From IMG/VR virus record IMGVR_UViG_3300032274_000001, positions 1 to 64,000 of that record: a stretch of 64,000 bases of DNA; one strand, given 5' to 3'. Source of the stretch: a virus. Lineage: Duplodnaviria; Caudoviricetes. The notes beneath the pieces were generated by a model, which searched no databases, was not told where the DNA came from, and saw only the letters and a program-made list of their open reading frames with translations. Both the position numbers and the translations under genes were made by a program. This document shows positions 3,001 through 54,544 of this stretch, piece after piece. The first letter of the stretch is position 1; every line of letters starts with the position of its first letter.

Positions 3001-3598
3001 CCAGTTCAACAAGCTGATCGCCGAGGGCCACCACAAGGCAGCGGTCACGGGCTTCAAGGCATTCCTTGAGTCGCAGGAATTCCAAGACGGCATGGACGCC
3101 ATCAGCCAGGCCACCGACGACTTGAGGGAGATCCTTCCGCTTGCGGCCAGCGTGGCCCAGGAGACGGCGGCGACGTCCAGGCAGACGGTCGAGGCAGCGA
3201 CGCAACTGGAGGAGGCGCGCCAGGAGCAAGAGGTCGAATTCGTCGAGCACCGCAACGCGCTCGGCGCCGGGGTCGTCACGCCGTTCGGACGGGTCAACCA
3301 GTTCCAGTCTCGGAACTTCGTGCCGCAGCTGGCCACGGGAGGATTCGTCACCAGCGATGGGCTTGCATTCCTGCATGCGGGAGAGACGGTGGTGCCGGGC
3401 GGGGCCGGAGACAGTCGCATTGACGGGCTGGTGGCGGAGAACCGGGAGATGCGTGCGGCAATGGTGGACCTGGCCCAGGCGATTCGTGACCGGCCGATGG
3501 TGCTGGAGGTAGAGCAGCGGGTGCTTGCCGAGGCGACCATCGCGGGCATCGAGGAGCAGGGCTTGGGCGAGCGTCGGCTATTCGTGAGGAGTCGCTAG
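26..3598 (+). CDS. Tail tape measure protein (5'-truncated; frame stays open to the window start)
   Basis: Gly/Ala-rich helical repeats, Gly-zipper hydrophobic segments, C-terminal LATGG..G.AFLHAGETVVP motif typical of tape measures; precedes tail genes. Confidence 0.8.
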   Translation: MQPGQQGTDLDLGGALGGIGAGIASGRAFEKKFNSRFDSGDGVRRLTTTDINRIAQDSLREGLKIKSQIVGAIGGAVTGALTGGAGGAIGGSIFGLVSSGLSSALLSQIDLDTLEKRKVDISFDPLLGGLINLFGGAGVLGLPTRGTAFRRAAEKGIFDESQFFGEEDGLQSIFGDITRDKGDALGLKVRRNYETGLLTAFERGLDPEVGRTIAGATAAIVGEAFSGSEPKDAGRIAADSGQIIAEFFSRGITTGLDSGEILNEARTALKGLVGELGQGLDFFDLVGSAQTFGLTNLPQSQELFGGIGAHAETISPFRAAAESITGVIRLFEDDFPQGTQVALSALQSLENEAGDGPFRTLTSSSADFLVAASSDFETLVDLLQQQLGAGLEINVERFERLTEAASQSAQIVSGALSAALTSGAPQLSIDTLFAGIGEQVKSQFSAAIKGALLDQTAIGQALTPITKALQSLPKIDLLDVAQRDFFSAALSQGIAEGRANLADYIPLIKEMIAAGEEFEALIDEATEPSRAERFGAAIEAALASASQNFSASLSEALFNGLLNGNVLSAGESLSSQVGDLVKTNLLKGIVEAFVAAAGIDALFEKYGPQLQFVVQSALSGAASDEQVQAQFKRIGEEMQGDAEGVIDVLFTGAQQLAPLFDALIPDEKTLTLNVEVEGDGVGGGTRPQVGNIPTDGVGNDPRIPENSPLRTDSRAPQSRTRRTNPFEGLASVAGLGSAQFNDTRRPLASGLLVRPDVLNEVLPPNPVRTITDPPPATPRVPTGVNANDFRNRGTDPSIQRGAPPGGFGGGGSGGSVDPEDFLLRFSFGGGILDSILGALGEDDSLQSVIRQQTGQGILQGMVDTFLSGPLVEEIMAPLQEAFFRAADDGLISTAEGEALTKLGEEASSQLADAALFMSGPMQAVAETFGLGVQKEVEKAADVLSGGFGSALRSVLVDGGEADQAFQRAIFDATIGGMIEAFLAGELMQPALDQFNKLIAEGHHKAAVTGFKAFLESQEFQDGMDAISQATDDLREILPLAASVAQETAATSRQTVEAATQLEEARQEQEVEFVEHRNALGAGVVTPFGRVNQFQSRNFVPQLATGGFVTSDGLAFLHAGETVVPGGAGDSRIDGLVAENREMRAAMVDLAQAIRDRPMVLEVEQRVLAEATIAGIEEQGLGERRLFVRSR

Positions 3599-7400: not shown

Positions 7401-10400
7401 TTCCACGACACGGTTCGAGGGCGTGCGGTCGCTGAAGGTGGACTCGAACGGCTGGGGCTGGGCGCGCCAGGTGGTGGGCTTCCGCCATCCGGGGAAGTGG
7501 GTCGTCACGGGGTTGGTCGCGTTGGAGTCGGGCGGTGCAAACGGCTTCCGGCTGGGGTTCGTCCGGCCCGGCGATGGCTTGACCATCGAGTACAGCGACC
7601 CGTTTGCGGTGAACGACTCGCAGTGGACACGGGCGAACCTACTCACTGACCTGTGCCCAGGAGAGTCTGGCACCGGGCAAGTTGTCGTGGAGCCCTACTA
7701 CCCCGAGGGGCAGAGCCCGCAGTTGCCGCAGGCGTTGCAGGCAGCGCTGCAGATGTGGCTCAGGGCGGACCAGATGGTTGCCAACGGGGATGCCACCTCG
7801 GATGGCGATGCCGTGACGACGTGGACCAACGACGGGCTGGTGTCCGGCCAGGACCCCACGCAGGGCATCACAAACGAGAAGCCCGTCTACAGGGCCGACG
7901 CTTGGAGGGGTCACCCGGGCGTGCTCTTCGATGGCGTCGATGACGTGCTGGCATCCACGTACGACACGTCGAAGCCGTACTCGATATTCGTGGTGTGCCT
8001 GGCCAAGGACGACGCGGCAGAGCGGGACTGGGCGACCACCGACATGGGAGTCGTGGGCCCCTCGGCGTCGGACGACAACGTCGTGCTGGGGGTGCGCTCG
8101 GGGGACTACGGCGCGAGAGCGGAGCCGACGAGTCCGGAGCTCACCGACAGTACGGCAGTCACCTCGGGGCGTCCGGTGTTGCTTCGGCTGAGCGTAAAGA
8201 CCGGGGAGAGCCGCTACCAGCTCAACGACGGCACCGAGCAGACCAACACCAGCGATCCCGACCTGACCAACCTGGCCATCGGGGGCAACGCCACGGCGGG
8301 CTTCTGGAAGGGCTACGTGTTCGAGGTTCTGGTCTACGAAACGGAGCTATCCGGGACGGACGTCGACGACATCCAGAACTACTTGCGTGCCAAGTGGGGC
8401 ATCGACGAAGCGGTGGTGAATGTCGACAACCTGCTGTGTGTGCCCGTGGGTGCGGCGGTGGAGCTCGAGGGCCCGCCGGACGGCACGGCCCCATTCCACG
8501 ACCTGCGCATCGGCAAGGTGGCGGTGAAGCAGGACACGTTCTTCGAGACGCGAGTCCCCTACAACCCGAACCAGCAAGCCGGCGAGCGGACGAGCTCCGA
8601 GGCGGTGACGGACTCGCAGGCGTTCGGGTTGGAATCGACCTACAACCCCGACAGCTCACAGGCGCGGTCGACGATTGCCACGTCGAAGCGGCTGGACCTG
8701 GGCGACCAGGGTGCCCTGATCGGAAACGAGGTGGCGAGCGAGGCAGCCGACTCCGCCAGGGGAGTCGCGGCCAAGGTGTCGCGATGGTTCGGTCGCGTGC
8801 GCAGGGAGTTGCAAGGGACGCTGGTCGACTCCGCCCGGCTGCCCCAGGTGGGTCAGATTCTCTACACCCCACGCGGGAAGCGGTTGCCGCTGTCGTCGAC
8901 GTACTTCCCGTTCTGGGTCATGACGAAGGTGGAGGACGAGCCCAACTCGCAGGAGGTGGAGGTTGCGGCCGAGTACGAGGTCGACCTTCTGGGCGACCGG
9001 CAGGAGGTGAACCCTACCAACTTCCCCTTCGGTGGGATCGGCGTGGCACTCACCGATGCGGCTATCGCGGGCTGGGCGGTGGTCACCGACATGGGCGGCA
9101 AGTACGCCCTGGGGGCGCAGACGGCTGACCTGGAAAGCGAGCTGGGCAGCCCGGTGCACACCCACCAGCACAGCCACAACCACACCCTGGCGGCGCACAC
9201 GCACACCGTGCCGGCGCCCACGATAGGCATCCCGACCGCGACGCAGAAGAGTGCCGACGTCAGTGGCGCTGCGCGAATCACCCGGGCGGCCAACTCGCAT
9301 ACGCATGCAACGCCCGCCGGGACGACGTCAGGGGCGGTGGAGAGCGCGACGGTGGAGTCGCAGGTGCTGGTTACCAGCCCGGGCCCGAACGACCCGCCGA
9401 CCAAGTACGTGAGCTTCCGCAAGCGGGTTCAGGCGTCGGCGACCATCCCGACGAATATCTGTATCGGGTACCCGAGTGCTACGGTGCCCAGCGGTTGGAC
9501 TCGAGAGACGAGTTTGGACGGGTGGTGGATCCGCGGGTCTGTGCCGGGCCGGGATGGGACAGCGACGGCGCCCACCTCCAGCTATGTGCCGAACGACTCC
9601 GGATCGACGCTCAACTTGGTGGACGGGTCGAAGGTGGGTCTGGGTACGCGGCTCGTCATCACAGAGGGCTCGAACACGATCACGGTGGTGGTCACGGCGG
9701 TGATCGATGCGGATTCGTTCACGGTGAAGCCGGTGTGGGTGGTCGGGGACGACGACGCCACTTACACCACCGGGGCTACGGTCACGCCGGCCGCAGAGGA
9801 GGCGGGCGATACGCTGGCGCAGCTCTCCCACGACCACAAGGCAGCGCTTCCCGGGCACACGCACGACCTGGCGCACGCGCATGCCATCTCGGCTGGGGTT
9901 GCCGTAGGGGCCTCGAGCGGGACCGTAGACGTGACGGGCAACTCCGGGTCTCTCAAGGGTGCTGCGGCGGATGCGCATGTGCACGAGTATTACTCGACGC
10001 TGGCCTCGGCGACCCCGACCAGTCCGTCGGCGGCAGGGACGATTGCCGCGTCGGCGACGAACCCTGCGCCGTACTCGGAGATGGTTTTCATCAAGCCGTC
10101 AGGGTCGGAGACGGACGTGCCCAGCGACGGGATGATCTTTTGGCAGGGTGCGGCCGAGGATGTCCCAAGCGAGTGGACTGTGCTCGGGACCGTAGACGGC
10201 TTGCTGGTCAAGGGTGCGGAGACGGGATTGGGGCCTGTGTCGTCCGGGGGTGGGCACTCGCATGTCGCGACGCCGGCCGCGCATGGGGCGGCTGCGCATA
10301 CGCACACTGCGGTGTTCTCCAACGATGCCGTCGCTGGGTTGGACGTCTTGCCCGCAGCGGCAATCGACTACGCGACGGCGGTACCCGAGTCGGGTGTCGG

Positions 10401-10542
10401 CGGTGGGAGCCACCAGCACAATATGGCCAACGGTCCGAGCGACTCTGCGAATGCGACGTTGGACGCGGCATCCGGGACGGCGACGGATGTGTCGGCGGGG
10501 CTACCCCTGCACGGCAAGCTACTCGTCATCCAGCGGAGCTAG
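4459..10542 (+). CDS. Large tail hub/fibre protein (2027 aa) with CBM-like, LamG-like and three collar/HxH modules
   Basis: NGGLE...EGVRSLKVD (CBM-like); WLRAD..W..DG..Q....P.....GVLFDGVDD (LamG-like); repeated P.GW..DG collar-like motifs and many HxH motifs. Confidence 0.8.
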   Translation: MAVEAFGVSRFNFFYAARDNEDIEYTALGSTLSSAFTVPEKRGTATLVSTAGLQTGDIIRIKDATYDTYWVVEKVVSGTQVVVRAFPGQTVGTQPWPWGSEIGTAGSSASNKDVTPQQPMWLYIDLTEAPEGETYDYLVYGAASVSCDTANEAFYVDCRAAVPGPESSPYASSLTSPTHVRHRAEYECFNADFEDWYPWNTAFTVTLEAGKRYGFAVEVDLEGITNGTKVRLRSPRLGAMRIDKAHSLFVEAGSGALDANVFTTTNTSLQDALTASVPDPGSATDFLLVGCALIGNTDGTSANREVLIKFDQLGHDFEAMIAGAQTNAHPTWASIGVVSLAAATGFKLQIAAKSAGTARTESPYLAAIPFAAIYGHAAHQSADDTGDATASTTEWVSIDSESLTPDEAGLHTAFVAADLRHNGTTDQTAYARPRFPTDPVAVHDGRAAPRGLVGYNKNNAIASAHQLCFWFHRAHLDAVAQAFKIEGRKRDGSTGGVQVGDKFYATAIRERGQFEPRRGDKSSVVVEVEIGQTYDNWDNPSGVQYSRTMEEGTKLVNAVSTNTNGYTKVATTGALTTDTFHYDVATRLLTIEMDSGESPANADTHVLVRRLALVSRDGQVLTDGDGEDLPYDAGLKRHPRLSRTLQVRDGAIEVASSFGTLELQNAEGTWDEPFAHEILESMRVTVLRGYPEHSSLRADQEVINHGIVSVPDWSQTLLRGRVYDASRRLKWPVAKTFVQVYQGTTQTGSAGGSDGQLMPVIYGAVFRVPAWRTTNETGDSSVNDYQFAAHACHKIVAVYEDGQTQDTMTVSTDKKSTGKVEINNDQFASHASPDPAPDVIYVDVVGYEETVESATGVPIETIGRISRHLLTTFAGYLEGALDDDAHRRIDLIRRRIDSLLDPLERAPSVALYVSDSRSVAECLSQLSVSGWGFWYESRAGRLSWGALEPEAQAITRNGGLEFDSAEAWPWEAAGAGTLALNSTTRFEGVRSLKVDSNGWGWARQVVGFRHPGKWVVTGLVALESGGANGFRLGFVRPGDGLTIEYSDPFAVNDSQWTRANLLTDLCPGESGTGQVVVEPYYPEGQSPQLPQALQAALQMWLRADQMVANGDATSDGDAVTTWTNDGLVSGQDPTQGITNEKPVYRADAWRGHPGVLFDGVDDVLASTYDTSKPYSIFVVCLAKDDAAERDWATTDMGVVGPSASDDNVVLGVRSGDYGARAEPTSPELTDSTAVTSGRPVLLRLSVKTGESRYQLNDGTEQTNTSDPDLTNLAIGGNATAGFWKGYVFEVLVYETELSGTDVDDIQNYLRAKWGIDEAVVNVDNLLCVPVGAAVELEGPPDGTAPFHDLRIGKVAVKQDTFFETRVPYNPNQQAGERTSSEAVTDSQAFGLESTYNPDSSQARSTIATSKRLDLGDQGALIGNEVASEAADSARGVAAKVSRWFGRVRRELQGTLVDSARLPQVGQILYTPRGKRLPLSSTYFPFWVMTKVEDEPNSQEVEVAAEYEVDLLGDRQEVNPTNFPFGGIGVALTDAAIAGWAVVTDMGGKYALGAQTADLESELGSPVHTHQHSHNHTLAAHTHTVPAPTIGIPTATQKSADVSGAARITRAANSHTHATPAGTTSGAVESATVESQVLVTSPGPNDPPTKYVSFRKRVQASATIPTNICIGYPSATVPSGWTRETSLDGWWIRGSVPGRDGTATAPTSSYVPNDSGSTLNLVDGSKVGLGTRLVITEGSNTITVVVTAVIDADSFTVKPVWVVGDDDATYTTGATVTPAAEEAGDTLAQLSHDHKAALPGHTHDLAHAHAISAGVAVGASSGTVDVTGNSGSLKGAAADAHVHEYYSTLASATPTSPSAAGTIAASATNPAPYSEMVFIKPSGSETDVPSDGMIFWQGAAEDVPSEWTVLGTVDGLLVKGAETGLGPVSSGGGHSHVATPAAHGAAAHTHTAVFSNDAVAGLDVLPAAAIDYATAVPESGVGGGSHQHNMANGPSDSANATLDAASGTATDVSAGLPLHGKLLVIQRS

Positions 10543-10780
10543 GCGTCACTCTCCCGTGAGGCATCTCTTTGAGGCGGATGTTATCGCGCCATGGCCAGAC
10601 CAGATCGGCGACTCGGTCGGCGGACGTTGTGAGTGTTAGTCCTGGCCCGTTCCGGAACAGGACCTGGCACCCGGAAGACCAGCTGTGCGAGGGGCCGACG
10701 CGCACGGGACGAATGCCGACGATGAAATCCCGCTCTACCGTGGTTCCGTCTGGCAGTTCGATCAGGTCGGGTTCGCTCAT
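10526..10780 (-). CDS. Hypothetical protein
   Basis: End of a chain of 4-nt-overlap-coupled minus-strand ORFs. Confidence 0.5.
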   Translation of the reverse strand: MSEPDLIELPDGTTVERDFIVGIRPVRVGPSHSWSSGCQVLFRNGPGLTLTTSADRVADLVWPWRDNIRLKEMPHGRVTPSSAG

Positions 10781-11136
10781 TCCGTCACCTCGTCAAGAAT
10801 GTGCATGATCATTGGTGGCTTGTCGGTGGCCAACTGGACGTGGGGCTTCGATGAGCGAACACTAAACCATCGCCGCTTCGTGTCCGGGTAGCTGTAGGTC
10901 GGCCCTTCTGGGTGCGTGATGTAGAACAGCAGCGCCCGCTCTGGCCTGTCGGCGCAGAGGAGCTTCCACCGTCGATTCATCTCCAGATCCCAAATACGAC
11001 GCGCGAGCTTCTTCCGCAGTCGCTTCCTGCCCTTTAGGGCACTAGGTCCCCACCGTCGAATCTCGTGCTCGATCGCAGGGACACCCCTCCGGGCGCGTTC
11101 GCTGAAGTCGTCTAGCCTGCCCATTCGCCAGTTCAT
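10777..11136 (-). CDS. Hypothetical protein
   Basis: 4-nt overlaps with neighbours on both sides. Confidence 0.55.
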   Translation of the reverse strand: MNWRMGRLDDFSERARRGVPAIEHEIRRWGPSALKGRKRLRKKLARRIWDLEMNRRWKLLCADRPERALLFYITHPEGPTYSYPDTKRRWFSVRSSKPHVQLATDKPPMIMHILDEVTE

Positions 11137-11369
11137 CGCCGTAGCCTTTCCAACAAGGGCCGGAGCTCCGAGGCCATCAAGGCGAGGGCGTGGTCATCGG
11201 CCATACCCGCCTCGTCTTCGCCTAGAATCGCCCCCAGGAGCTTTTCCAGAGTGGGGCCCCACCGTCGCAGTAGGGCCAGGTCTGCGACGCTTAGAGCGCC
11301 ATCCGGGAGCACTAGCGCGGACTTGATGTCTCCGAGGTGCTGGGCGATCTCGTCAAGGGCGTCTTTCAT
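11133..11369 (-). CDS. Hypothetical protein (start MKDALDE)
   Basis: ATG at 11369 overlaps upstream stop; helical composition. Confidence 0.55.
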   Translation of the reverse strand: MKDALDEIAQHLGDIKSALVLPDGALSVADLALLRRWGPTLEKLLGAILGEDEAGMADDHALALMASELRPLLERLRR

Positions 11370-11623
11370 GGGATGTCTCCCTTGACCGTGGAGGTCAGTC
11401 GCGATGCCAGGTCCTCGAAGTCGACCGCTGGTGACGCGGGGGCAAGGACGGTGGTGTCTTGGGCCAGCAGGGCACGGATGGTGCGAAGGCGGCGTGCGTC
11501 TTCGAGTGCCCTCTCGAAGTCGATACGGATCTGGTGGTCTCCGTCGCTGTGTAGTGTGCCGGTCTTGGAGTTCCGGTGGATGGTGCAATGGGTCCACTCC
11601 GGGCCGTAGGTCTCATCGTTCAT
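11366..11623 (-). CDS. Hypothetical protein
   Basis: Coupled ORF with GAGGA RBS. Confidence 0.55.
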   Translation of the reverse strand: MNDETYGPEWTHCTIHRNSKTGTLHSDGDHQIRIDFERALEDARRLRTIRALLAQDTTVLAPASPAVDFEDLASRLTSTVKGDIP

Positions 11624-33846: not shown

Positions 33847-34213
33847 GGACAAGAAGGTTCACGTGTTTGCGTGCACAGAGCACGACATGGCTCTTGGTGG
33901 TGGTCCTTTGCCCACGCATCCGAAAGCGATTGAGGTTCAGGATCGCATGACGAAGCCCATCAAGGGCGAACTGCGCGCCCTACGTAATGCCTACGAGGCC
34001 CTACGAAAACAGGGCTGGCGAGAGGTCATGTACGCGCCGAAGGATGGGTCAATGCTGGCGCTGATTCTTCCCGATTGTGCAGTGGTCGTAGAGGGGAACC
34101 GAGACAAGCATGGGTTCATGATGTTCGATGGCGACGGTTGGCCGTGTGACCCCGTGCTGTGGCGCCCCCTCGAAGAGGTAGACCCAGAGTACAAGGGGAC
34201 ACCCGGTGAGTGA
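33839..34213 (+). CDS. Hypothetical phage protein
   Basis: APKDG.MLAL motif; coupled ORF. Confidence 0.55.
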   Translation: MAEDKKVHVFACTEHDMALGGGPLPTHPKAIEVQDRMTKPIKGELRALRNAYEALRKQGWREVMYAPKDGSMLALILPDCAVVVEGNRDKHGFMMFDGDGWPCDPVLWRPLEEVDPEYKGTPGE

Positions 34214-35864
34214 CGCACTGACCCAGGCGCTTCATTACCTGGACCTCGGCTACCTGCCCGTCCCCTGCCTGCCCAACGGAAGCACGTGGGTGAACTGGCG
34301 AGAGATGGACAAGCGCCCCCCCACGGAGTCGCGGCTACGGGACTACTTCGAGGACCGCTCGGAGACGATGGTCAAGCTGGCCTTGCTGGGCGGGCTGTGC
34401 GCGATCCGGTGCGCCGGGGATAGGGCCGAGGCGTTGCTGGTCGAGCGAGGGTTGTCGATCCCACCAGGGGCCCCGGCGATCAACCAAGGCAACGTCTCGG
34501 TGTTCCTGCTCCGGGGCTTCGACGGAATCAAGAATCTCACGGAGGGCTCGGCCCTGTTCACGGGCGGCGATGCGAAGTCGCCCGATCTGGTCGAGGTGCA
34601 CGTCGGCAAGCTCGTAGCCGCACCCCCCTCGGAGGGCACGCAATGGTTCGGCGAGTTGCCGCTGTTCCCCGAGCTCCCAGAGGTACCGGCGCCGCTGGCC
34701 GCGCTGATCCAGGATCGCATCAAGGAGGTGGAGGAGAAGAAGCAAGGCGGCGCCCACTGGGCAGCAGTGTCGCTGAGGGGTGTCGATTCTCATGACTCCG
34801 TCGAGGAGGCGCACCGTCTGTGCGGGTACCTGAACGCCAAGGGCCTACCGCTGGACGTGTCTCGAGAGATCATGATGGCGTTCGCGGACAGGTGCCACCC
34901 GTTGCCAATGCTGGTGTCCGACGTGGATGCGATTATGAGGCGCCGCGAGTGGGACGGCAACGACGACGGAGCGGAGCGGCCCGGGGTGGTGTGGCACGAG
35001 GATGAAATCGAGGCCCACGTGGAGATGCGTCTCAAGCCGGTGGCGACATCGTGGGTGGCCCCCACGCCGCTGCCGAGTGTGAACCAAGCCTTGCGGGGTG
35101 GGTTCAAGGGCGGGCGGATCTATCTCGTGGCGGGCGAGCCCGGGGCGGGCAAGACGGCGCTGGTGATTCAGACGCTAGTCAGGGCGGCCAAGGCGGGCAT
35201 CAAGAGCTTCATGGTGTCGGCGGAGATGCCTCGCGACTCGATCTACGACCGGGAGATTGCCGCCGAGGGCCAGCTCGACGTCGGCAAGGTCGAGGACGGA
35301 CTGGCCGACCCCCATGCGATGGCCTACGTGGCGGAGAAGCTGTCGGGGCTGCCGATCGCGTTGGCGAACAACTCGGTACGTTGCGTCCAGGACATCGTAG
35401 ACCAGGTGAAGCTACACGAGCCGAAGCTGGTCGTGGTGGACTACTTGCAGTTGATCGCTCACGACGAGCGGGGCAGGGATACCCGGGAGCGGGTGGAGGC
35501 GGTGTCGAAGGGGCTAAAGGGGTTGGCGAAGCGCGAGGGGTGCGCGGTGGTGTGCGTGTCGTCGCTGACGAAGAAGGACAGCAAGCGAGCCGGGGAGGAG
35601 ATGCCCACCAACGATCGCCTCCGGGAGTCTGGTGCGTTGCACTTCGACGCCGATGGCATTCTGCTCTTGGGCCGAGAGAACGGTCAGACCAAGTGCGCGC
35701 TGTCGAAGAACAAGTACGGGCCCATCGGGACGTTCGACATGGAGTTCAAGGGCTCGACGATGAGCTTCACCGAGAAGGGAGGGGCGGACGTCCCGGACGG
35801 GAGATTCCCCGACGACGACGCCGGCCCGGATGTGTTGGGGGAGGTGGTCGATGAGTTCTTCTAG
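34206..35864 (+). CDS. Prim-pol-like N-domain fused to DnaB-like SF4 helicase
   Basis: GEPGAGKT Walker A, SAEM, VVVDYLQLI, LRESG...DAD; N-terminal LVAAPPS. Confidence 0.85.
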   Translation: MSDALTQALHYLDLGYLPVPCLPNGSTWVNWREMDKRPPTESRLRDYFEDRSETMVKLALLGGLCAIRCAGDRAEALLVERGLSIPPGAPAINQGNVSVFLLRGFDGIKNLTEGSALFTGGDAKSPDLVEVHVGKLVAAPPSEGTQWFGELPLFPELPEVPAPLAALIQDRIKEVEEKKQGGAHWAAVSLRGVDSHDSVEEAHRLCGYLNAKGLPLDVSREIMMAFADRCHPLPMLVSDVDAIMRRREWDGNDDGAERPGVVWHEDEIEAHVEMRLKPVATSWVAPTPLPSVNQALRGGFKGGRIYLVAGEPGAGKTALVIQTLVRAAKAGIKSFMVSAEMPRDSIYDREIAAEGQLDVGKVEDGLADPHAMAYVAEKLSGLPIALANNSVRCVQDIVDQVKLHEPKLVVVDYLQLIAHDERGRDTRERVEAVSKGLKGLAKREGCAVVCVSSLTKKDSKRAGEEMPTNDRLRESGALHFDADGILLLGRENGQTKCALSKNKYGPIGTFDMEFKGSTMSFTEKGGADVPDGRFPDDDAGPDVLGEVVDEFF

Positions 35865-45725: not shown

Positions 45726-48497
45726 GTGGCCCGGCGTGAGGTGACGGCTAGTCGCGGCAAGCAGCCGTCGCGCGCACGGAACAAGTCCGCCCGGGGTAAG
45801 ACCTCCACCCAAAAGGCAGGCCCCCAGACCGAGCAGCGCGCCGGAGACGTCCAGGGCTTGTCGGCCTTCGACAAGTTCAACCGGGCTCTAGACCTGCTCG
45901 GCCAGGGGCGGATGTCTGACCTTCAGGATCCGTACCTGCAGCTCAGCTCCTGGTACTCAGGAGTCCAGGTCATCAGCATGAGCATGCAGCGGGCACCGTT
46001 CGTGCCTTGGATGACGGGTGAGCGCTCTGGGGAGATCACGTCGGGGCCCCTGTACGACCTGACTAAGCAGCCGAACACGGCGCAAACGTGGGATCAATTC
46101 CTCGGCCAGGCGATCGTGCACATGCACGGGCCCAAGGGCGCGGCCTACATGCACAAGAAGGGCAAGCGGAGCATTGGCTTGCCCGAGGAGATCCGGCTCA
46201 TCGACCCGCAGAGGGTCCATGCTGCAGTGTCCAGCGAGGACACGATGGAGCTCCGCGGTTGGAACATCGACCGGGGCCCCAACGGGGAGCCGCCACAGGA
46301 GATCCGTGGCGACGACAAAGACGACATCATCCCGATCTACCTAGCCGCACACCCTACGGACCCGTACCAGTCGGTAAGCCCGCAGATTCCCGGCCAGCTA
46401 GACCTAGACACCGAGCGCATGGCGGCCCTGTACACGGCGTCTACGCTGGCCTCTGGGGGTAGTCCGGGGTTGCTGTTCTCGTTCCTGGGGGACTCGGATT
46501 GGGACGAGGAGCAGGGCCGGGCCGTCGAAGAGAAGCTGAAACAGAAGTACGGCACCCACGACGGCTACCGGATGGCTGCTGTGTCGGGGGATTGGAAGGT
46601 CCAGAACCTGGGCATGCGGCCCCGGGACATGGAGTTCACGCAGTGGCGGAGTGCGATCATCAACATCATTGCTCGCCTTCTCGGCATCACGCCGTTGCTG
46701 CTGGCCCACTACGAGGGCGCCACGGGCCTCAGTGATGCCGGTTTGCAGGTCCAGGAGCGAGTCAACTACCGGCAGAAGTTCATTCCACTCGGCTCCAAGA
46801 TTGCGAACGCTTGGCAGAAGGGCATCGTCAATCCGTACAACCCAGCCATCGAGGTCTTGTTCGACTTCTCCCAGATCGAAGCCTTGCAGGAGGATTTCGC
46901 GGCGAAGCTGGTAGCCGCGCAGGCGTTGGCTCAGCTTCTGATCCCGCTGGAGCAGATCGACTCGCTACTGGACCTCGGGCTGGACTTGTCGAAGATCCCT
47001 TGGGCGAGTGATGTCCTGGTGCCCTTCGGCCAGGTGCCGGCGAGTCAGATGGGCGTTTCAACGGAGGACGCGGCAGAAGGGGACGCGCTGCCCACCGAGC
47101 CGCTTGCCGAGACCAGCGACAGCGGAGCGGGTGCCCTCAATGGTGCCCAGGCCAAGGAAGCGTTGAACATCATCTCCCAGGTCAGGCTGGGCAGTATCCC
47201 GAAGACGACAGCCGTGGCCCTCCTGGTGGCCATGAATGTTCCCCCGCAATTGGCGAGTCAGATGCTTGCCGATGTAAAGCTCGCGCCACCGGAGCAGATC
47301 GCCGACGAGGCTGCAGCGGCTAAGGGCGAGCGGGCCGTTGAGGGCGACCCGGACGAAGAAGTAGACCCGGCCTCGGTGGTGGAAACGCACTCCGAGGACG
47401 ACGAGAACGCCCCGGACGTGGTGATTGAGGGACGTACCCTCAAGCTCTCCATCAAGCGCCGCAGGAAGGCCGCGAAGGACTACCAGAAGGCCCGAGAGAA
47501 GGCGGTCACGCGGGTCAAGGGCAAGGTCAAGCGCGCCATGATGACGCATCGCTCAGCGGTGCTCCGGGCGTTCAATGAACAGGCAGGCACCAGCCTCCGA
47601 GCCATCATGCGGGCCCAGAATCCCGACATGACGGAGCTGCAGCTACATGAGCTGACCCCGGAAGAGGTGGTGGCGCGTGCACCGACCGAGCTCGAAGAGG
47701 CAGAGATCCAGGCCATTCTGGATGCCGTCGACCGGGGATTGATCGCGGCGACGATCTCACCAGCGGTCGAGCAGGCCATGCGGCAAGCGGTTGCCGCCGG
47801 GGAGCCTACGCTCGAAGCCCTCGGCGTGGCCAAGGCGGACCTCACCGAGTACCGCAAGCGGCTCCCTGCGCTGACGAAGAAGTACGCGGCGCAGACCCTG
47901 CAGAAGGGCCCCGCCACGGCAGCCGAGGAGATGGTCAAGCGGGCCGTCCGCAAGACGATCGTTGACGCCATCGACGAGGGCAAGACGGTAGCCCAGACGG
48001 CCAAGTCGTTGCGGGCGATGTTCAACGAGACGATGAGCGACGGCCGAGCCCGGGTGATTGCCCAGACCGAGACGGGCATCGCTATGAACACGGCCCAGTT
48101 CGAGCACTACAGCGCCAACGGGGTCGAGGAGATCGAGTGGCGGGCCCGTATGATTCGCACCCGCGAGTCCCACGAGGCCATGCACGGGACGCGGGCCAAG
48201 ATCGGCGAGGAGTTCGGCAACGGCCTCAAGTACCCGCAGGAGCCGGGGGCACCGGCCGCCGAGGTGGTGGAGTGTCACTGCGGAGTGGTCCCGGTGGCGC
48301 GGTCGCGGTCGGAGGTGCAGGTCGAGGCGGCAGCGCTCGAGGAGATAGAAGGCCGCGGGGTTCAGGAGCGGGACGGGTCGTTTTACGTCATGACCGACGA
48401 CGGTGTGGCGTTGAGTCGAGCCTTCGAGACTAGAGAGCAGGCACAGCAGCGCTTTGCAGCCATGGAGAGCTTCAGGCGCGAGGGGGTAGGGGCATGA
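45726..48497 (+). CDS. Portal protein fused to Mu gpF-like head morphogenesis domain
   Basis: HK97-type portal (PN..QT...F, G.PG, DMEF...I...G.P.LL); ARVIAQTE, W..R...RESH..HG, GLKYP.EP..PA.EVVECHC. Confidence 0.88.
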   Translation: MARREVTASRGKQPSRARNKSARGKTSTQKAGPQTEQRAGDVQGLSAFDKFNRALDLLGQGRMSDLQDPYLQLSSWYSGVQVISMSMQRAPFVPWMTGERSGEITSGPLYDLTKQPNTAQTWDQFLGQAIVHMHGPKGAAYMHKKGKRSIGLPEEIRLIDPQRVHAAVSSEDTMELRGWNIDRGPNGEPPQEIRGDDKDDIIPIYLAAHPTDPYQSVSPQIPGQLDLDTERMAALYTASTLASGGSPGLLFSFLGDSDWDEEQGRAVEEKLKQKYGTHDGYRMAAVSGDWKVQNLGMRPRDMEFTQWRSAIINIIARLLGITPLLLAHYEGATGLSDAGLQVQERVNYRQKFIPLGSKIANAWQKGIVNPYNPAIEVLFDFSQIEALQEDFAAKLVAAQALAQLLIPLEQIDSLLDLGLDLSKIPWASDVLVPFGQVPASQMGVSTEDAAEGDALPTEPLAETSDSGAGALNGAQAKEALNIISQVRLGSIPKTTAVALLVAMNVPPQLASQMLADVKLAPPEQIADEAAAAKGERAVEGDPDEEVDPASVVETHSEDDENAPDVVIEGRTLKLSIKRRRKAAKDYQKAREKAVTRVKGKVKRAMMTHRSAVLRAFNEQAGTSLRAIMRAQNPDMTELQLHELTPEEVVARAPTELEEAEIQAILDAVDRGLIAATISPAVEQAMRQAVAAGEPTLEALGVAKADLTEYRKRLPALTKKYAAQTLQKGPATAAEEMVKRAVRKTIVDAIDEGKTVAQTAKSLRAMFNETMSDGRARVIAQTETGIAMNTAQFEHYSANGVEEIEWRARMIRTRESHEAMHGTRAKIGEEFGNGLKYPQEPGAPAAEVVECHCGVVPVARSRSEVQVEAAALEEIEGRGVQERDGSFYVMTDDGVALSRAFETREQAQQRFAAMESFRREGVGA

Positions 48498-50557
48498 CCA
48501 TGAGAACGCTACGAAGCGTTGACGACTGGTACGGCGGACAGAACCCGCTCGACGCATTGGAGTTCCAGCGGGCAACCAAAAAGGGCCGCGTCGGTACCAA
48601 CAACGAGATTCTGAAGCGAGGGTCGGCGATCGAGGCAGAGGCCGGCCGGTTCCAGATGAACGAGCGTGTGCTGGTTCGCTCTGGGCTCAACGTCGTCCAG
48701 GCGCGCCAGGCGCCCCAGGACCTATACGGCTCCGACGCCAACGTGGTGCGGTTCTGCGTCGTGTCGGGCGAGGATGCCCGAGACAACAAGGGGCTGGACG
48801 TCCAGGGCGGCAACACGCAGGCGTTCCGGGCGAACCCGGTGGTGCCCTGGTGCCACATCTACAACGAGCCGCCCGTGGGCCGGGGCCGGTACATCGCGAC
48901 CATGAAGCGTGCCGGCGGGCCGTACGAGCTGTGGTCGGACGTCGAATTCATCCCCGAGGACATCTACCCGTTCGGGGCAGTCATCGGCCGCATGTACAAG
49001 GGCGGTTGGCTGAGGGGCATCTCGCTGGGCTGGATCCCGACCAAGGTCAGGGAGGTTCGGAGCCGAGGCGGGAAGCTTCAGAAGGTCGTGTCCGAGCAGT
49101 GGGAGATGGTCGAGGAGTCGGCCTGCGCGATCCCGATTGATCGGTGGGGGCTGGCCGAGATGGCCTCGGCGGGCATCTTCGGCGAGGGGACAAAGCGGTC
49201 CCACTTGGCTGACAACTTCGTCGAGACCTACCGGCGCACCGTTGGCGACAACGGCGACTGGACGGGTTGGAGCGAGGGCGTGGCCTACGAGATCTCGGGC
49301 AAGGATGTCCGTATGGTTCCCGACTGCAGCGAGGGAGCTGCCACCGAGGATGGCCTGAGCGACGAGGCAAGGGCCGTCCTGACCGAGGCCCGCGAGAGCA
49401 TTACCCGGGCCTACGAGCCCGAGGCCCAGCGCGAGCTCGTGGAGGAGCACCACATCGACCCCGAGAGCAACCTCGGCGACCTGAAGGCCCTGTCCGTCGA
49501 GGCGGCTGCGGTCCGGAGTCTAGGTGCGGGAGAGGATGACCCCGTAGAAGAGCCCGAGGCTCGCTCTGAGCCGACCGGGGAGGATCCCGAGGGGGAAGCC
49601 CTGGAGGTGGAGCAGGCGAGCGGAGAGCGGCTCCCAGGGGAGTTGCTACGCGGCGAGGTCTCGGACGAGTTGGACCTGGTCTATGACCGGCTGCGGGGTG
49701 CGGTGGTGGCAGCCATGGACGCCACGGAGCGTCTGTACTGGCTGGGCAACTCGGCGTACTGGCAGGGCAGGAGCCTGGCCGAGACGCTGGGGTTCCCTCC
49801 GGAGCAGCGGGAGCGGGTATTGGCCGAGACCCGGCAGCTGGGCGCCGATGACCCGGAGAGCCCCGACGCATTGCACAACCTGATCGCTCGGCAGACGAAG
49901 CGACTGCGGAGCTCGGCGAATCTGATCCTGGAGGCCACGGTAGCGGCCGAGGATGCCATGGACGTTGGCGATTCGGTGGGCGAGACGGCGTCGGCCGAGG
50001 TTGGCGCCTCGGTGGTCGAAGAGGCGGGCCTTACCGAGGCGTTGTCGATCATGGTCCATCGGATGGCCGATGAGGGTGTCGAGATCCGGGCAGGCAAGAA
50101 GATCTCCAAGAGTCGGCGGGAGAAGATCGGCGGCCTGCTCAAGCAGCTTCAGAGCGTCACCAAGGGCCTGAAGCAGGTACTCGGGGAGGGCGAGAGGGAG
50201 GCGAAGGTTGAGGACGAGCCGAAGGCTGAGACGGCGTCGCTGGGGCCGAAGCTTGCCGAGCTCCGTAGCCTGGCCGGCCTGGGAGACCGGGAAGGTGTCG
50301 TCGCTGCGGATCCGGTCGAGGCGCCAGCTACCCGGTCGCGCGTGCTCGAGATCCTGGACAAGGCCAAGGCCAAGGCCAAGCCCCTCGACGGCACGGACCC
50401 GAAGCCGGAGAGCCGAACCAATGGCGAACTCCCGGGGGTGAGGGTGCCGAAGACAGAGGGCAAGAAGGTCACGGCTGAATTCGCCCGAGACCTGGCTGCG
50501 GGGATCGACAAGCTCCGCGCCAAGGCGGGCCTTGACCAGGGCGCGGGAGCCGAGTAG
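48494..50557 (+). CDS. Prohead protease with long acidic (scaffold-like) C-terminus
   Basis: DARD, F.ANPVVPWCH..PVGR, GWLRGISLGW.P, W...EESAC.IP. Confidence 0.8.
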   Translation: MTMRTLRSVDDWYGGQNPLDALEFQRATKKGRVGTNNEILKRGSAIEAEAGRFQMNERVLVRSGLNVVQARQAPQDLYGSDANVVRFCVVSGEDARDNKGLDVQGGNTQAFRANPVVPWCHIYNEPPVGRGRYIATMKRAGGPYELWSDVEFIPEDIYPFGAVIGRMYKGGWLRGISLGWIPTKVREVRSRGGKLQKVVSEQWEMVEESACAIPIDRWGLAEMASAGIFGEGTKRSHLADNFVETYRRTVGDNGDWTGWSEGVAYEISGKDVRMVPDCSEGAATEDGLSDEARAVLTEARESITRAYEPEAQRELVEEHHIDPESNLGDLKALSVEAAAVRSLGAGEDDPVEEPEARSEPTGEDPEGEALEVEQASGERLPGELLRGEVSDELDLVYDRLRGAVVAAMDATERLYWLGNSAYWQGRSLAETLGFPPEQRERVLAETRQLGADDPESPDALHNLIARQTKRLRSSANLILEATVAAEDAMDVGDSVGETASAEVGASVVEEAGLTEALSIMVHRMADEGVEIRAGKKISKSRREKIGGLLKQLQSVTKGLKQVLGEGEREAKVEDEPKAETASLGPKLAELRSLAGLGDREGVVAADPVEAPATRSRVLEILDKAKAKAKPLDGTDPKPESRTNGELPGVRVPKTEGKKVTAEFARDLAAGIDKLRAKAGLDQGAGAE

Positions 50558-50580
50558 GTCCGGATGCACACTCACACGTA

Positions 50581-50878
50581 ATCGAGGGTGGGTTGTAAGA
50601 CCCCAACTGCGGGGAGAGGGCCAGTCCATAGGGGGCTGGCCTTTTCCTTTGGTGGTTGACCGCTCGCGAGGGGGCGAGTAGTCTTCTCCGCAGTTCGTAC
50701 CAGTACCGAACGCTCGGCACTGCCGGCGTGGCCTCTCATGGGTAGGCGCACGCAAACGGCCAGCGCACACGGGTGAATCGGCTGAGGCGACGTCCTGGTT
50801 GGTCCTTCTTTTGGACTGCCATCGTTGACGGCCCGGCTTAACCCGTAACGCGCACTCAGGGGGATTCCCCTTGGGGCG
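50581..50878 (+). ncRNA. Putative structured RNA / 5' leader of the capsid gene
   Basis: At least six hand-paired helices with many G-U pairs in a 337-nt intergenic gap. Confidence 0.55.
50611..50650 (+). terminator. Intrinsic-terminator-like hairpin within the capsid leader
   Basis: GGCCAGTCC-ATAGG-GGGCTGGCC followed by TTTTCCTTT. Confidence 0.45.
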
Positions 50879-50894
50879 AGAAAGCACACCACCC

Positions 50895-52271
50895 ATGGCG
50901 AACGAAGCCCACATTCGTGAAGTCTCCGAGAAGGAGCTCCACTCGCTGATCGAGGTTGCTGAGCACTCCCTCGACGAGAACAAGAACAGCATCGAGAAGC
51001 TGCAGCGCGCCCTCGATGGGGACCCCGACAAGAAGGACGACGCCGGCAATCCGCTCGAGCCAGGCATGCGTGCCGAGCTTACGGCGATGGCCGAGGAGCT
51101 GGCGGACACGCGCCAGTGCATGACCGACGTCCTCGAGGAGTTCAAAAAGGTAGACGAGCGCACCGACCGGTCCGACAAGGTCTGGCGTGCCTACGAGGAT
51201 GCGGACCCGCGGGGCTTCCACACCAAGACGTACCGGGCCCTTGCCGACGTCTACAACGCCTCCTACGACTCGTGGAAGAAGGACAACTACGCGAGCTCGC
51301 CTGAGGGGCACACCCGTGCGGCGGACCAGTCGTCCACCACGGACACCCAGGGCGGTATCCTGGTCCCGACAGCGACGTGGGAAAACGTCGCGTACATCAT
51401 CGGCCAGAAGTCGTTTCTGCGCGCGTACGGCACGCAGGTGCCACTGCCGACCGACGACCTGAAGGTCCCGTACCTGCCCGAGATCCCGACCATGTACGTG
51501 CAGGGCACCCAGGGGGTCGAGCCCACGCACGGGTCGCTGATCTTCGACGACACCCAGATGCTCTCCGCGAAGACCTACCTGGGCATCAACGTCATCCCGA
51601 ACCAGCTCGTCCAGGATGCCGTCCGGATCTGGGCGACGTTCTGGGCGCGTGTCTTCACCGACGCCATGGCGCTCAAGGAGAACAAGGGCATGTTCTCCGA
51701 GAAGCCCACCGACGCCAACGGCGCATTCTCTGGCGTCATCCAGGAGGTCGAGGGCGCGACCACGAACAAGCATGAGTACTACCTCGGCGGGTCCAGCACG
51801 TCTGGGAGCACCCACTTCTCGACGCTCAGCTACGACGATCTGGTCGAGATCCAGAGCCTTCCCAACGAGAACAGCGCGGACGGCAACCGGTGGTTCATGC
51901 ACCGCAACGTCGGCAAGTACATCCGGAAGCTGAAGACCACCGACGGCTTCCCGCTGATCGGCCCGATGACGCAGGGCATGGCGTCGATGAATCCGAAGCC
52001 GGACACGCAGGGCCCGCGCTCGACTCCGCTGCTGAGCGACCCGATGCACGAGACGTCGGCGATGCCTGGCACGAATGCGGTGTCGAAGTCGGTGATCGTG
52101 TACGGGAATCCCGCCTACACCTTCTGGGGCGAGCGGGCTCCGATGTCGATCGAGTTCTCGAAGGAGAGCCAGTTCAAGGACTACGCGACCGTCATGCGCG
52201 TGGCGGAGCGGATCGCGCAGAAGACCATTGCGGTCGATGCGTATTCGATCGGGAGGGTCGCGGCGAGCTAA
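50895..52271 (+). CDS. Major capsid protein, HK97 fold with N-terminal delta-like coiled coil
   Basis: GGILVP..W...I; IP.QL..DA..spine helix; WFMH....IRKLK..DG.P; IVYGN..Y..G.R; RV.ER. Confidence 0.93.
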   Translation: MANEAHIREVSEKELHSLIEVAEHSLDENKNSIEKLQRALDGDPDKKDDAGNPLEPGMRAELTAMAEELADTRQCMTDVLEEFKKVDERTDRSDKVWRAYEDADPRGFHTKTYRALADVYNASYDSWKKDNYASSPEGHTRAADQSSTTDTQGGILVPTATWENVAYIIGQKSFLRAYGTQVPLPTDDLKVPYLPEIPTMYVQGTQGVEPTHGSLIFDDTQMLSAKTYLGINVIPNQLVQDAVRIWATFWARVFTDAMALKENKGMFSEKPTDANGAFSGVIQEVEGATTNKHEYYLGGSSTSGSTHFSTLSYDDLVEIQSLPNENSADGNRWFMHRNVGKYIRKLKTTDGFPLIGPMTQGMASMNPKPDTQGPRSTPLLSDPMHETSAMPGTNAVSKSVIVYGNPAYTFWGERAPMSIEFSKESQFKDYATVMRVAERIAQKTIAVDAYSIGRVAAS

Positions 52272-52347
52272 CCGAATCCCGCATGAGGAGCGACGATCCG
52301 ACCACCGAAGTCAGCCGGCGGGGTTGGGGAGCTGGGATGGGCTGACC

Positions 52348-52379
52348 AGCGGGGGTCTTGCTACGGCGGGGCCCCCGTT
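52348..52379 (+). terminator. 14-bp hairpin with C(UACG)G tetraloop after the capsid gene
   Basis: agcgggggtcttgc-tacg-gcggggcccccgtt, includes 5 G-U pairs. Confidence 0.65.
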
Positions 52380-52446
52380 GCTATTTGGGACGTGGCCGTG
52401 CGGGGGCTGTGCAGCGGCCCGACATGGGCAGCAGCGACGTCGGACT

Positions 52447-52483
52447 CGGGGGAGTCTCCTTTACTTGGGGGCTCCCCCGTTTT
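52447..52483 (+). terminator. Intrinsic terminator
   Basis: 13-bp stem cgggggagtctcc/gggggctcccccg followed by TTTT. Confidence 0.75.
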
Positions 52484-52501
52484 CGTGGTAGAGGGCCGGG
52501 T

Positions 52502-52789
52502 ATGAAGCGGAGAGGGTTTCTGGGGGCGCTGGCTGGGTTGTTCGCCGCGCCTTTGGTGAAGGTGGCCCATGCGCCGATCGCGACGGCGTCGCCCGTGGTG
52601 CTGGCTGCTGAGCCAATCGCGAAGGAATTGTCCGCCGACGCGGTTCAGTCCCTTGAGGGACTGTTTGCCCAGGTGTTTACGGACGCCATGGAGCTTGCAG
52701 AGAACAGGATGATCTTTGGTCATCACGCAGAGGTCCGGCCGGTTGCGGTCTATGAGCCACCTCCGGGCTACGAGCATCGGTTCGGATAG
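52502..52789 (+). CDS. Twin-arginine (Tat-like) protein containing a capsid-derived segment
   Basis: MKRRGFLG N-terminus; 34-aa gapless match to the MCP (16 identities). Confidence 0.7.
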   Translation: MKRRGFLGALAGLFAAPLVKVAHAPIATASPVVLAAEPIAKELSADAVQSLEGLFAQVFTDAMELAENRMIFGHHAEVRPVAVYEPPPGYEHRFG

Positions 52790-52800
52790 GAGACAGATCG

Positions 52801-53196
52801 ATGGCAACGACAACGGTTGAGTATCTGAGGGACTACGAGGGCCATGCCGTAGGGGACCGGGAGGGCTTGGACGTCCACGACGCCGCCGGGCTGGTCATGG
52901 CTGGGGTGGTCCGAGATGTGAACGGGAAGTGCGCGAAGCGGGGTCTGGTGCCGGCGACGCTGACGGTGGTGGACGAAGCGTCCCCGGTCGATGACAGGGT
53001 GTTCGACACCCTGGAGCAACGCCCCTTGCCGAGCACGTCGGACATCGAGCGCGACGCCGATGGCTTCCCCATCGGGCGGAGGTTCAAGCCCAAGGATCCG
53101 GACTCGGAGGTGGTCGCCGGGGCGTTCGCTGCCACCGATGCGGGGCTGAAGCCCTTGGCCGAGGTTCCGAAGATCGGAGATGACGGCGATGAGTGA
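52801..53196 (+). CDS. Putative head-associated small protein
   Basis: VEYLRDY.G...GD...DA..LV.AGV motif; GGAG RBS. Confidence 0.55.
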   Translation: MATTTVEYLRDYEGHAVGDREGLDVHDAAGLVMAGVVRDVNGKCAKRGLVPATLTVVDEASPVDDRVFDTLEQRPLPSTSDIERDADGFPIGRRFKPKDPDSEVVAGAFAATDAGLKPLAEVPKIGDDGDE

Positions 53197-53626
53197 CGCG
53201 GCTAGAGAGATGCAGTGGTGGGAGCACGTGAACTGGAACGCTCCGCACTGGGTCAAGATCACCGTCCGGGACGTCTCTACCGTGGTGGGGAACGTGGCCA
53301 AGGGCTCGGTGGTGCGGATGCCTGGCACGGAGGCAAGGCGCTTGTGTCAGTGGGCCAACCCTCCGCTTGGGGAGCTCGCAGACGAGCTGGCAGAGCGCTG
53401 GCTGATCCTGACCCCTACGGCGGCCTCGTTTAGCCCCGAGACGGTGCGGGAGATGGAGGCTGGGCCAACCCCTGGCCCGGCCATCGTGCTCCCAGAGGCG
53501 AAGCGAGAGCCCTTGGCGGAGGTGATTGCCCGGTGTGCCGCGTCTGGTGTGGGGCACTCTTTGAAGCAGTCGCGGAGGATCGCGAAGCAGCGAGCCACGC
53601 GGGAAGCGAAGCGACTGGCTCCCTGA
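53189..53626 (+). CDS. Hypothetical protein
   Basis: G.VV.MP..EA.RL motif similar to the previous gene. Confidence 0.5.
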   Translation: MSDAAREMQWWEHVNWNAPHWVKITVRDVSTVVGNVAKGSVVRMPGTEARRLCQWANPPLGELADELAERWLILTPTAASFSPETVREMEAGPTPGPAIVLPEAKREPLAEVIARCAASGVGHSLKQSRRIAKQRATREAKRLAP

Positions 53627-53658
53627 GGGGGACCGGTCTTGGCCTGGAGGGAGACGAG

Positions 53659-53937
53659 ATGAGAAGGCAACGAGATGGGGAGATGGCGAGGCGTACTCCC
53701 GGTCAGCGAGTAGCCCGTTGGGTCCGGGTCGCCGTCGCTACCCTCAGGGGTAAGGTAGACGGGGGGCCCGAGGGCCTGCGTGTCCCGTGGTGGTGCCGAT
53801 TCCCTGCTGGTTGGCACCTGAACGTGGAGCGGAGCGGCTTCGACGGGTGTAGCCACGAGGGCCGTTGTCTGGACTGTGGCCGGCGTGTCTTGCTGGATTC
53901 TCAGGGTAACTGGTTCGAGATGGAGGAGAGATCATGA
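53659..53937 (+). CDS. Hypothetical protein
   Basis: C...GWH...C..CG motif. Confidence 0.45.
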   Translation: MRRQRDGEMARRTPGQRVARWVRVAVATLRGKVDGGPEGLRVPWWCRFPAGWHLNVERSGFDGCSHEGRCLDCGRRVLLDSQGNWFEMEERS

Positions 53938-54296
53938 AGCGACGCTCACTGGTACAGGCTCTAGCGGCTCTCCCTGGGCTCCTGGCGGCATTTCGGTCGG
54001 CGTCCGGGGCAGAGGAGAGGGGAAGCCTGATCGTCTTGGGTGGCCCGTTGCACGCTTCGGTGATGGTGCATGATGGCTTTGAGGGCTGGTACCAGCAGCT
54101 TCCGTGCGGGGATCACTGTTCGCGCATGGTGGAATGGCGGAACCTCGGTGATGGAATGATCAAGGCCCGCAGTCCAGAGGACGTGCCATGCCTGCGCGCG
54201 TGGGTAGGGAAGACCCCGACCATCCTTGGCATCGACCCCGCGTATCCGGGGGCAGAGGAATCGGCTCACTGGACGGGCCAGTGGTCCCCCATGTGA
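53934..54296 (+). CDS. Second twin-arginine-like protein
   Basis: MKRRSLVQALAALPGLLAAFRSASG. Confidence 0.5.
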   Translation: MKRRSLVQALAALPGLLAAFRSASGAEERGSLIVLGGPLHASVMVHDGFEGWYQQLPCGDHCSRMVEWRNLGDGMIKARSPEDVPCLRAWVGKTPTILGIDPAYPGAEESAHWTGQWSPM

Positions 54297-54352
54297 CCCC
54301 GCCGCAAAACCTGACCGAAATGCATACCACGTTGGTAGGGAGGAACCTGGAG

Positions 54353-54544
54353 ATGAGTGACGTAGAGTACCGACTGAAGTTCCGGATTGGCGATGCGGCA
54401 GTTTACAAGGGGGAGATCACTGGCCGCGTAGATGCGATCCGGATCGAAGCCGAGTCCGTGAGGGTCCGGCTGGTGATAGACGAGATCGGGACGCAGCTGT
54501 GGGCTCTAGAGTCGCTGGTCGACTTCGCCCCCGATCCCGCCTGA
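54353..54544 (+). CDS. Small SH3-like protein
   Basis: KFRIGD.A...G.V..I pattern. Confidence 0.5.
   Translation: MSDVEYRLKFRIGDAAVYKGEITGRVDAIRIEAESVRVRLVIDEIGTQLWALESLVDFAPDPA

Follow-up and report, generated by a model that had tools for sequence, protein, structure and literature searches.

A small singleton ORF behind the capsid gene of an uncultured phage pairs a twin-arginine-type leader with a diverged capsid helix motif

Known accessory genes, export signals, and capsid sensors

Morons are extra genes located between the conserved late genes of HK97- and lambda-like phages, and many of their products carry an export signal. The term is used here in the sense of PMC6469090. Signals of the twin-arginine (Tat) pathway follow the consensus S-R-R-x-F-L-K (PMC5539426), and a protein can leave the cell by Tat together with its partner as a heterodimer (PMC10924467). 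Capsid proteins are sensed by several host systems, among them CapRel (PMC9712102), a TIR system (10.1101/2024.07.29.605636), and STAND sensors (10.64898/2026.01.04.697583). A short internal segment of a capsid protein can act as an immune trigger, as described for the Gol region of T4 with Lit (PMC8829019, PMC9712102), and a phage protein, DSAD1, competes with the structural-protein trigger of DSR2 (PMC11087589).

The small ORF discussed here (52502-52789, 95 aa) lies in a window of 64 kb, the first part of a linear IMG/VR virus record of 72.9 kb with an estimated completeness of 84%. It belongs to a phage lineage that is largely uncharted, and its head module and the locus behind it run on the plus strand. 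The ORF resembles morons in separating, as a small addition, two genes that are direct neighbors in all relatives, in its deviating base composition (GC at third codon positions, GC3, of.73 versus.81-.91 in the neighboring genes), and in the export-type signal of its product. In contrast to morons, it translationally abuts the next late gene, and its content appears to come partly from the phage's own capsid gene. Measured against the moron criteria of insertion between genes adjacent in relatives and possession of an own promoter and terminator, the insertion is present, whereas the search for an own promoter and an own terminator gave none.

The comparison with HK97-type capsid proteins (PF05065, TIGR01554) is similarly mixed. 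The small ORF harbors a helix motif specific to one clade of these proteins, with 16 of 34 residues identical to each of four members, yet it spans only ~8% of their length, lacks the A-domain, E-loop, and N-arm, and could not itself build a capsid. Its leader shares with Tat signals (PMC5539426) the R-R-x-F-L sequence, a moderately hydrophobic core of 15 residues, a basic residue ahead of a candidate A-x-A site, and a total length of 24-29 residues. It departs from them in that the putative passenger is tiny and cofactor-free, no signal profile matches, and a proline follows the best cleavage site.

The Gol/Lit and DSAD1/DSR2 pairs are comparable insofar as they illustrate that a short capsid segment, or a competitor of a sensor, can matter biologically. 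Unlike the small ORF, Gol lies inside the capsid gene rather than in a separate gene and has no export leader; DSAD1, for its part, does not duplicate the tail tube protein and has no export leader either. For the small ORF, any sensor would be hypothetical. It would best be classed with the small lineage-specific accessory genes of phage late operons.

The locus behind the capsid gene

The head module includes a portal gene fused to a MuF-like domain (45726-48497) and the gene for the HK97-type major capsid protein (50895-52271, 458 aa; PF05065 E 2.3e-23, phrog_10, TIGR01554 E 1.1e-27). Between them lies a gene for a 687-aa protein (48494-50557) without a Pfam or PHROG family match, which has counterparts of similar size (687-723 aa) at the corresponding position in all relatives; its product is presumably the scaffold or protease in unrecognizable form. 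Five related capsid proteins were found, with identities of 48-69%, and scans of metagenomes and genomes returned no further lineage of the capsid clade. The first ~130 residues of the capsid protein (50895-51290) are predicted, in a low-confidence model, to form three long helices resembling the HK97 delta (scaffolding) domain. When the large ORFs of the window (26-3598, 4459-10542, and others, up to 2027 aa) were scanned against Pfam, 9 of 10 had no match at E≤1e-4, and a DnaB-type helicase (34206-35864) was alone in being recognized.

Two strong hairpins separate the capsid gene from the small ORF, bearing out an earlier reading of this DNA, made from its sequence only, that had placed the ORF just past the capsid terminators. 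Hairpin 1 (52347-52380) has a 15-bp stem and a weak U tail (-30.4 kcal/mol, z -3.3). Hairpin 2 (52447-52479) and its T run constitute an intrinsic terminator (52447-52483; terminator scan; -32.1 kcal/mol, z -4.2), which is kept in relative L004 such that the tails of both can be aligned by eye. A Shine-Dalgarno-like AGAGGG (52490-52495), read from the sequence, is located ten bases 3′ of the T run of hairpin 2 and 6 nt 5′ of the ATG of the small ORF. At the other end, the TAG stop overlaps AGGAGA (52788-52793), the Shine-Dalgarno site read for the next gene (52801-53196, 131 aa), a homologue of which lies directly past the capsid terminator in all relatives.

No sigma-70-like promoter was found in 50500-54400, where the host may use another promoter type, and the terminator scan returned no terminator 3′ of the small ORF. 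An upstream extension of the reading frame, to TTG 52358 or ATG 52421, was rejected because it would traverse both hairpins. Direct repeats on either side, as a mobile insertion would leave them, were searched for, and just short, chance-level ones were returned, and no further capsid remnants occur in any frame of 52272-52800.

In the four relatives whose DNA was read (L004, L005, L006/L012, and L014), the homologue of the 52801 gene is the first gene past the capsid terminator, and the two flanking genes are 170-225 nt apart; a fifth relative contig, assessed by gene lengths only, has the same lengths. The corresponding interval in the window measures 529 nt. The small ORF therefore resides in a lineage-specific insertion of ~300 nt, and the alignment of the L004 terminator tail with hairpin 2 places this insertion right behind the ancestral terminator. 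The ORF is absent from all five related lineages, the DNA having been read in four. This absence says little about the age of the ORF because even the nearest relative is at synonymous saturation, with a third-position identity of.58 over the capsid gene.

The search for homologues beyond these relatives was extensive. An exhaustive phmmer search of 1.84 billion representatives returned only the small ORF itself and P0009, a 2012-aa Ig-like repeat protein that was judged spurious as its score is the sum of 13 weak stretches. A word-based search of 5.8 billion clustered proteins, at near and longer lengths, yielded no homologue; back-translated peptide patterns in IMG/VR retrieved the small ORF only, and PHROGs, PADLOC, and Pfam held no match. 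The sole tblastn match among 50,697 phage records, in Pseudomonas phage Noxifer (E 0.04), is antisense to an annotated gene and was dismissed as spurious. The ESM Atlas provided generic single-helix look-alikes only. The ORF is a singleton, found so far in one virus. A search for genes combining RRxFL with a capsid fragment next to the capsid gene had been suggested; the combination is present in the window itself, but it has no homologue and is absent from every relative. The sequence-only reading had named a one-off recombination remnant without homologues, expression, or selection as what would refute its proposal, and part of this applies, as the ORF is a one-off without homologue.

By its ATG, Shine-Dalgarno sequence, and codon usage, the small ORF looks like a gene. 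Its GC content by codon position (.70/.45/.73) has the coding pattern, with the third position below that of its neighbors. On a codon log-odds table derived from 19 confident genes versus their wrong frames, it scores 0.32 bit/codon, compared with.09-.69 for real small genes and a maximum of 0.285 for spurious ORFs of 80-160 aa (n=117), all of which fall below it; its antisense and +1 frames score negative. A public assembly of the same virus, with 100% identical DNA, carries an independent gene call (P0003) that begins at TTG codon 13 (52538), giving a protein of 83 aa in which the twin arginines are lost. The choice between ATG and TTG therefore decides whether the product would be exported. 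The ATG is preferred here, given its ribosome-binding site and spacing.

Codons 1-29 (52502-52588) encode a leader of the twin-arginine type, comprising K-R-R-G-F-L, 15 uncharged residues, a lysine, and either A-H-A or A-T-A/S. The Tat-like character initially ascribed to MKRRGFLG holds, as K-R-R-G-F-L-G at residues 2-8 conforms to the twin-arginine consensus, and the residue read-out has R-R-x-F-L followed by the uncharged stretch of 15 and then K-V-A-H-A. A-H-A has a proline at +1, and the other possible site, A-T-A/S, lies at residues 27-30. Proline at +1 disfavors signal cleavage. The signal profiles PF10518 and TIGR01409 do not match the leader (Pfam E≤1, NCBIfam E≤10); short signal models often overlook genuine signals. 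The leader is followed by the capsid-derived segment and then by a Pro-rich C-terminal tail of 23 aa (52718-52786), for which similarity to nothing was found. The predicted mature product of ~66 residues contains 10 D+E, 4 K+R, and no Cys, with a net charge of ~-6.

A leader pattern that requires a start codon, then R-R-x-(hydrophobic)2, and then no fewer than 11 uncharged residues matches three times in the six frames of the 64 kb, namely, in the small ORF, in a second ORF (53934-54296, 120 aa, 4 Cys), and in a spurious antisense frame. The small ORF and the 53934 ORF both begin with ATG and M-K-R-R, the latter also with a hydrophobic leader, and both are intergenic ORFs of the same operon. 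The leader of the 53934 ORF has a relative in L004 (7959-8039, 14/27 identical) within a 44-codon ORF (7959-8090), and a short stretch close to its C-terminus is found again (11/13) where the 282-aa L004 homologue of the 53180 gene ends. Between the window and L004 (7858-8090), modules have been shuffled among the 53934 ORF, the homologue of the 53180 gene, and the L004 leader ORF.

Homology and divergence of the capsid-derived segment

The coordinates and translations of the two similar segments are as the sequence-only reading gave them, and a recount confirms that codons 52616-52717 and 51594-51695 encode 16 identical residues out of 34 in a gap-free alignment. The capsid segment (51594-51695) is the most conserved stretch of the clade capsid proteins, with 25 of ~36 columns invariant (alignment A1). 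In the small ORF, the resemblance extends over residues 34-72 (52601-52717), a predicted helix, and was recovered by BLASTP, hhalign, profile search, shuffles, and motif scan. BLASTP against the capsid protein gives 17/39 identical residues at 32.7 bits (pairwise E 7e-7). When 768 six-frame ORFs were compared all against all by BLASTP, the two formed the best non-overlapping pair, only 2.7 bits above the next; since chance pairs in the same search score as high as 30.0 and 29.6 bits, this pairwise score is marginal when taken alone.

Profile methods separate the segment from noise more clearly. A profile built from the capsid proteins of the five relatives, with the window's own capsid excluded, finds the small ORF among the same 768 ORFs at E 3.1e-5 and 18.3 bits, the runner-up having 7.0 bits. 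In 5000 shuffles of small-ORF residues 30-95, the maximum is 5.4 bits versus 20.1 for the real sequence, and hhalign gives E 1.3e-6. Across the 18,950 models of NCBIfam, the HK97 major capsid model TIGR01554 is the sole one to touch the small ORF, with residues 38-72 aligned to profile positions 191-225 (E 0.12, 11.4 bits, cut-off 27.5); Pfam has no match at E≤1. The ORF thus falls under the PF05065 and TIGR01554 family cut-offs, yet its helix segment is homologous to the clade capsid proteins. A degenerate DNA pattern for the 11 residues V-F-T-D-A-M-x-L-x-E-N occurs in one other IMG/VR contig, where it lies in a clade capsid gene, and in 596 Gb of prokaryote genomes it has one match, an unrelated enzyme in a KSB1 MAG. 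On the strength of the profile search, the shuffles, the rarity of the motif, and the TIGR01554 match, the segment derives from a clade capsid gene, and as judged by these searches, it is a genuine copy of the capsid motif of this clade, not a chance likeness. Read by eye, the fragment is nearer to the clade than to the next distant capsid gene, L007.

The designation of this stretch as a spine helix is putative and follows from its position in the HK97 profile and from a helix predicted at capsid residues 238-263 (AlphaFold2, 6-row alignment, pLDDT 33; low confidence). At pLDDT 33, the capsid model is too poor to serve as a fold-search query. A PDB profile search gave only a weak capsid match, which ends where the helix begins. 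For the small ORF itself, AlphaFold2 predicts a helix at residues 45-75 with pLDDT 82-90. Of note, TIGR01554 weakly matches the small-ORF helix (52613-52717) yet misses a 47-residue excerpt of the window's own capsid protein (51576-51716). By this measure, the copy resembles the general HK97 consensus slightly more than the presumed source does.

The two segments have diverged substantially. The synonymous differences that had been listed for them (gat/gac, gtc/gtg, ttc/ttt, acc/acg) are present, and the identity of the small ORF to its own capsid segment by first, second, and third codon position is 23/21/13 of 34. The four clade capsid proteins share at least 28 of 34 residues among themselves in this segment, versus the 16 that the small ORF shares with each of them. 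Its third-position identity to every clade capsid gene (11-13/34) equals the composition expectation of.35, compared with 0.68-0.82 among the capsid orthologues, whereas its first and second positions are 62-68% identical to theirs. Nei-Gojobori estimates for the segment are pS 0.73 and pN 0.36, with pN falling to 0.11 in the 11-codon core and rising to.48 in the flanks. Of the 25 clade-invariant capsid positions, 13 are changed in the copy.

These values qualify the protein-level constraint that had been proposed from the synonymous differences. Saturation of the third positions but not of the first and second supports constraint, on condition that the copied gene was a capsid gene of the clade type and had the codon bias of the clade. 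In a young neutral copy, the three codon positions would be similar to roughly the same degree, and the observed saturation argues against a young neutral scar; under such a copy of a clade capsid gene, the pattern has a probability of about 0.004 in a rough normal approximation. The copy has thus probably been kept as a protein for a long time and, given the 13 of 25 clade-invariant positions changed, probably under rules other than those of the capsid protein. The donor may instead have been a capsid gene outside the sampled clade with differing codon usage. No donor-like capsid protein was found in the 1.84 billion representatives, in which the sampling of viruses is thin.

Explanations for the chimeric ORF

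The leading explanation, to which about half of the probability is assigned, is a lineage-specific chimeric late gene with an envelope-bound product, in which the capsid helix is recycled material. We infer translation from the ATG, late expression, export, and function as follows. The ORF would have been built from two pieces, a twin-arginine-type leader and a strongly diverged capsid helix motif of 34-39 residues, inserted directly behind the conserved capsid terminator. It would act as the first cistron of the downstream operon, its stop overlapping the ribosome-binding site of the next gene. Read-through of the terminator would allow late expression at a reduced level, along with the downstream neck and glycosyltransferase genes. 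Removal of the leader would leave an acidic product of ~66 residues with one long helix and a Pro-rich tail, which would be sent to the membrane or periplasm and thereby kept apart from assembling capsids and cytoplasmic capsid sensors. The helix is read as recycled material because an exported product cannot meet assembling capsids. Purely as conjecture, the product may have an accessory role in the envelope, e.g., in blocking later-arriving phages or affecting lysis.

It is less likely, albeit a possibility to be taken seriously, that the ORF is a scrambled, functionless fragment of a related capsid gene deposited behind the terminator by illegitimate recombination, the frame and the leader being fortuitous or translated without a selected function. 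Such a remnant would be expected to be a one-off without homologue and missing from all relatives, as is the case here; it would also suit the GC3 below that of the neighbors and the recombinationally active region, with pieces of the 53934 ORF recurring elsewhere in L004, and a distant donor with other codon usage would produce saturated third positions without selection. Against this origin, the codon log-odds exceed those of all spurious ORFs, and the ORF combines an ATG and a ribosome-binding site with a canonical R-R-x-F-L leader. Moreover, 52272-52800 contains no second capsid-like remnant in any frame, the motif is clade-specific with the fragment nearer to the clade than to L007, and the exhaustive search yielded no donor-like capsid protein. 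Even less room is left for a chance or convergent likeness of an unrelated helix. A BLASTP score just 2.7 bits over the best chance pair in the window and the lack of a Pfam match would be compatible with it, but the profile search (E 3.1e-5) leaves an 11-bit gap above noise, none of the 5000 shuffles exceeds 5.4 bits, the motif pattern has one match in IMG/VR and one chance match in 596 Gb, and TIGR01554 is the only family match. With the profile, shuffles, and motif scan combined, this reading appears close to refuted and is considered very improbable.

The sequence-only reading had favored a membrane-tethered capsid mimic, acting as an assembly anchor, a dominant-negative factor for competing phage, or a decoy for capsid-sensing defenses. 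If the leader is functional, these roles fit poorly, since export would carry the product away from both capsids and cytoplasmic sensors. A working mimic of the capsid helix that binds a partner of the capsid helix region (the scaffold/protease, a host sensor of capsids, or the capsid protein itself) is considered improbable, and marginally more so in the narrower form in which it engages the head scaffold/protease or a host sensor and titrates it, holds it at the membrane, or drags it out by Tat co-export. Routes to a mimic would be a cytoplasmic 83-aa protein started at TTG codon 13, a protein held in the membrane by its uncleaved leader, or removal of the partner by Tat co-export, the first two of which may be topologically easier. 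In its favor, the retained part is the most conserved capsid motif, with a core pN of.11, and the product is small and acidic. Capsid-sensing host systems (CapRel, TIR, and STAND) are known as well, as are a phage competitor of a structural-protein trigger (DSAD1 versus DSR2) and the Tat export of partners as heterodimers. In HK97-fold proteins, this helix packs on the protein's own sheet, such that a free copy would be a poor surface mimic. The retained residues form one contiguous block and not one helix face, resembling inheritance rather than a binding face, and 13 of 25 clade-invariant positions are altered. Furthermore, an exported product would miss cytoplasmic partners, and the ORF has no relatives. 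A complex prediction of the capsid protein (alignment A1) with small-ORF residues 30-95 scored 0.00 in a run without controls and weighs on neither side of the binding question.

With the envelope-bound chimeric product as the favored reading, the locus offers a clean and, in principle, datable case of a small phage gene made from a piece of an essential structural gene and an export leader, and its position is a usual one for accessory genes. As a single sequence without relatives, it carries limited weight. Should the helix copy still bind partners of the capsid helix, phage-encoded capsid mimics would become directly testable with a 66-residue peptide, and a true mimic would represent a new principle of anti-defense or assembly control derived from a piece of the phage's own capsid gene.

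Two further genes were noted in the relatives. In L004, an HNH endonuclease gene (9647-10093) is located just 5′ of the glycosyltransferase gene, and L005 harbors a sigma-54-activator-type AAA+ gene (10630-11401).
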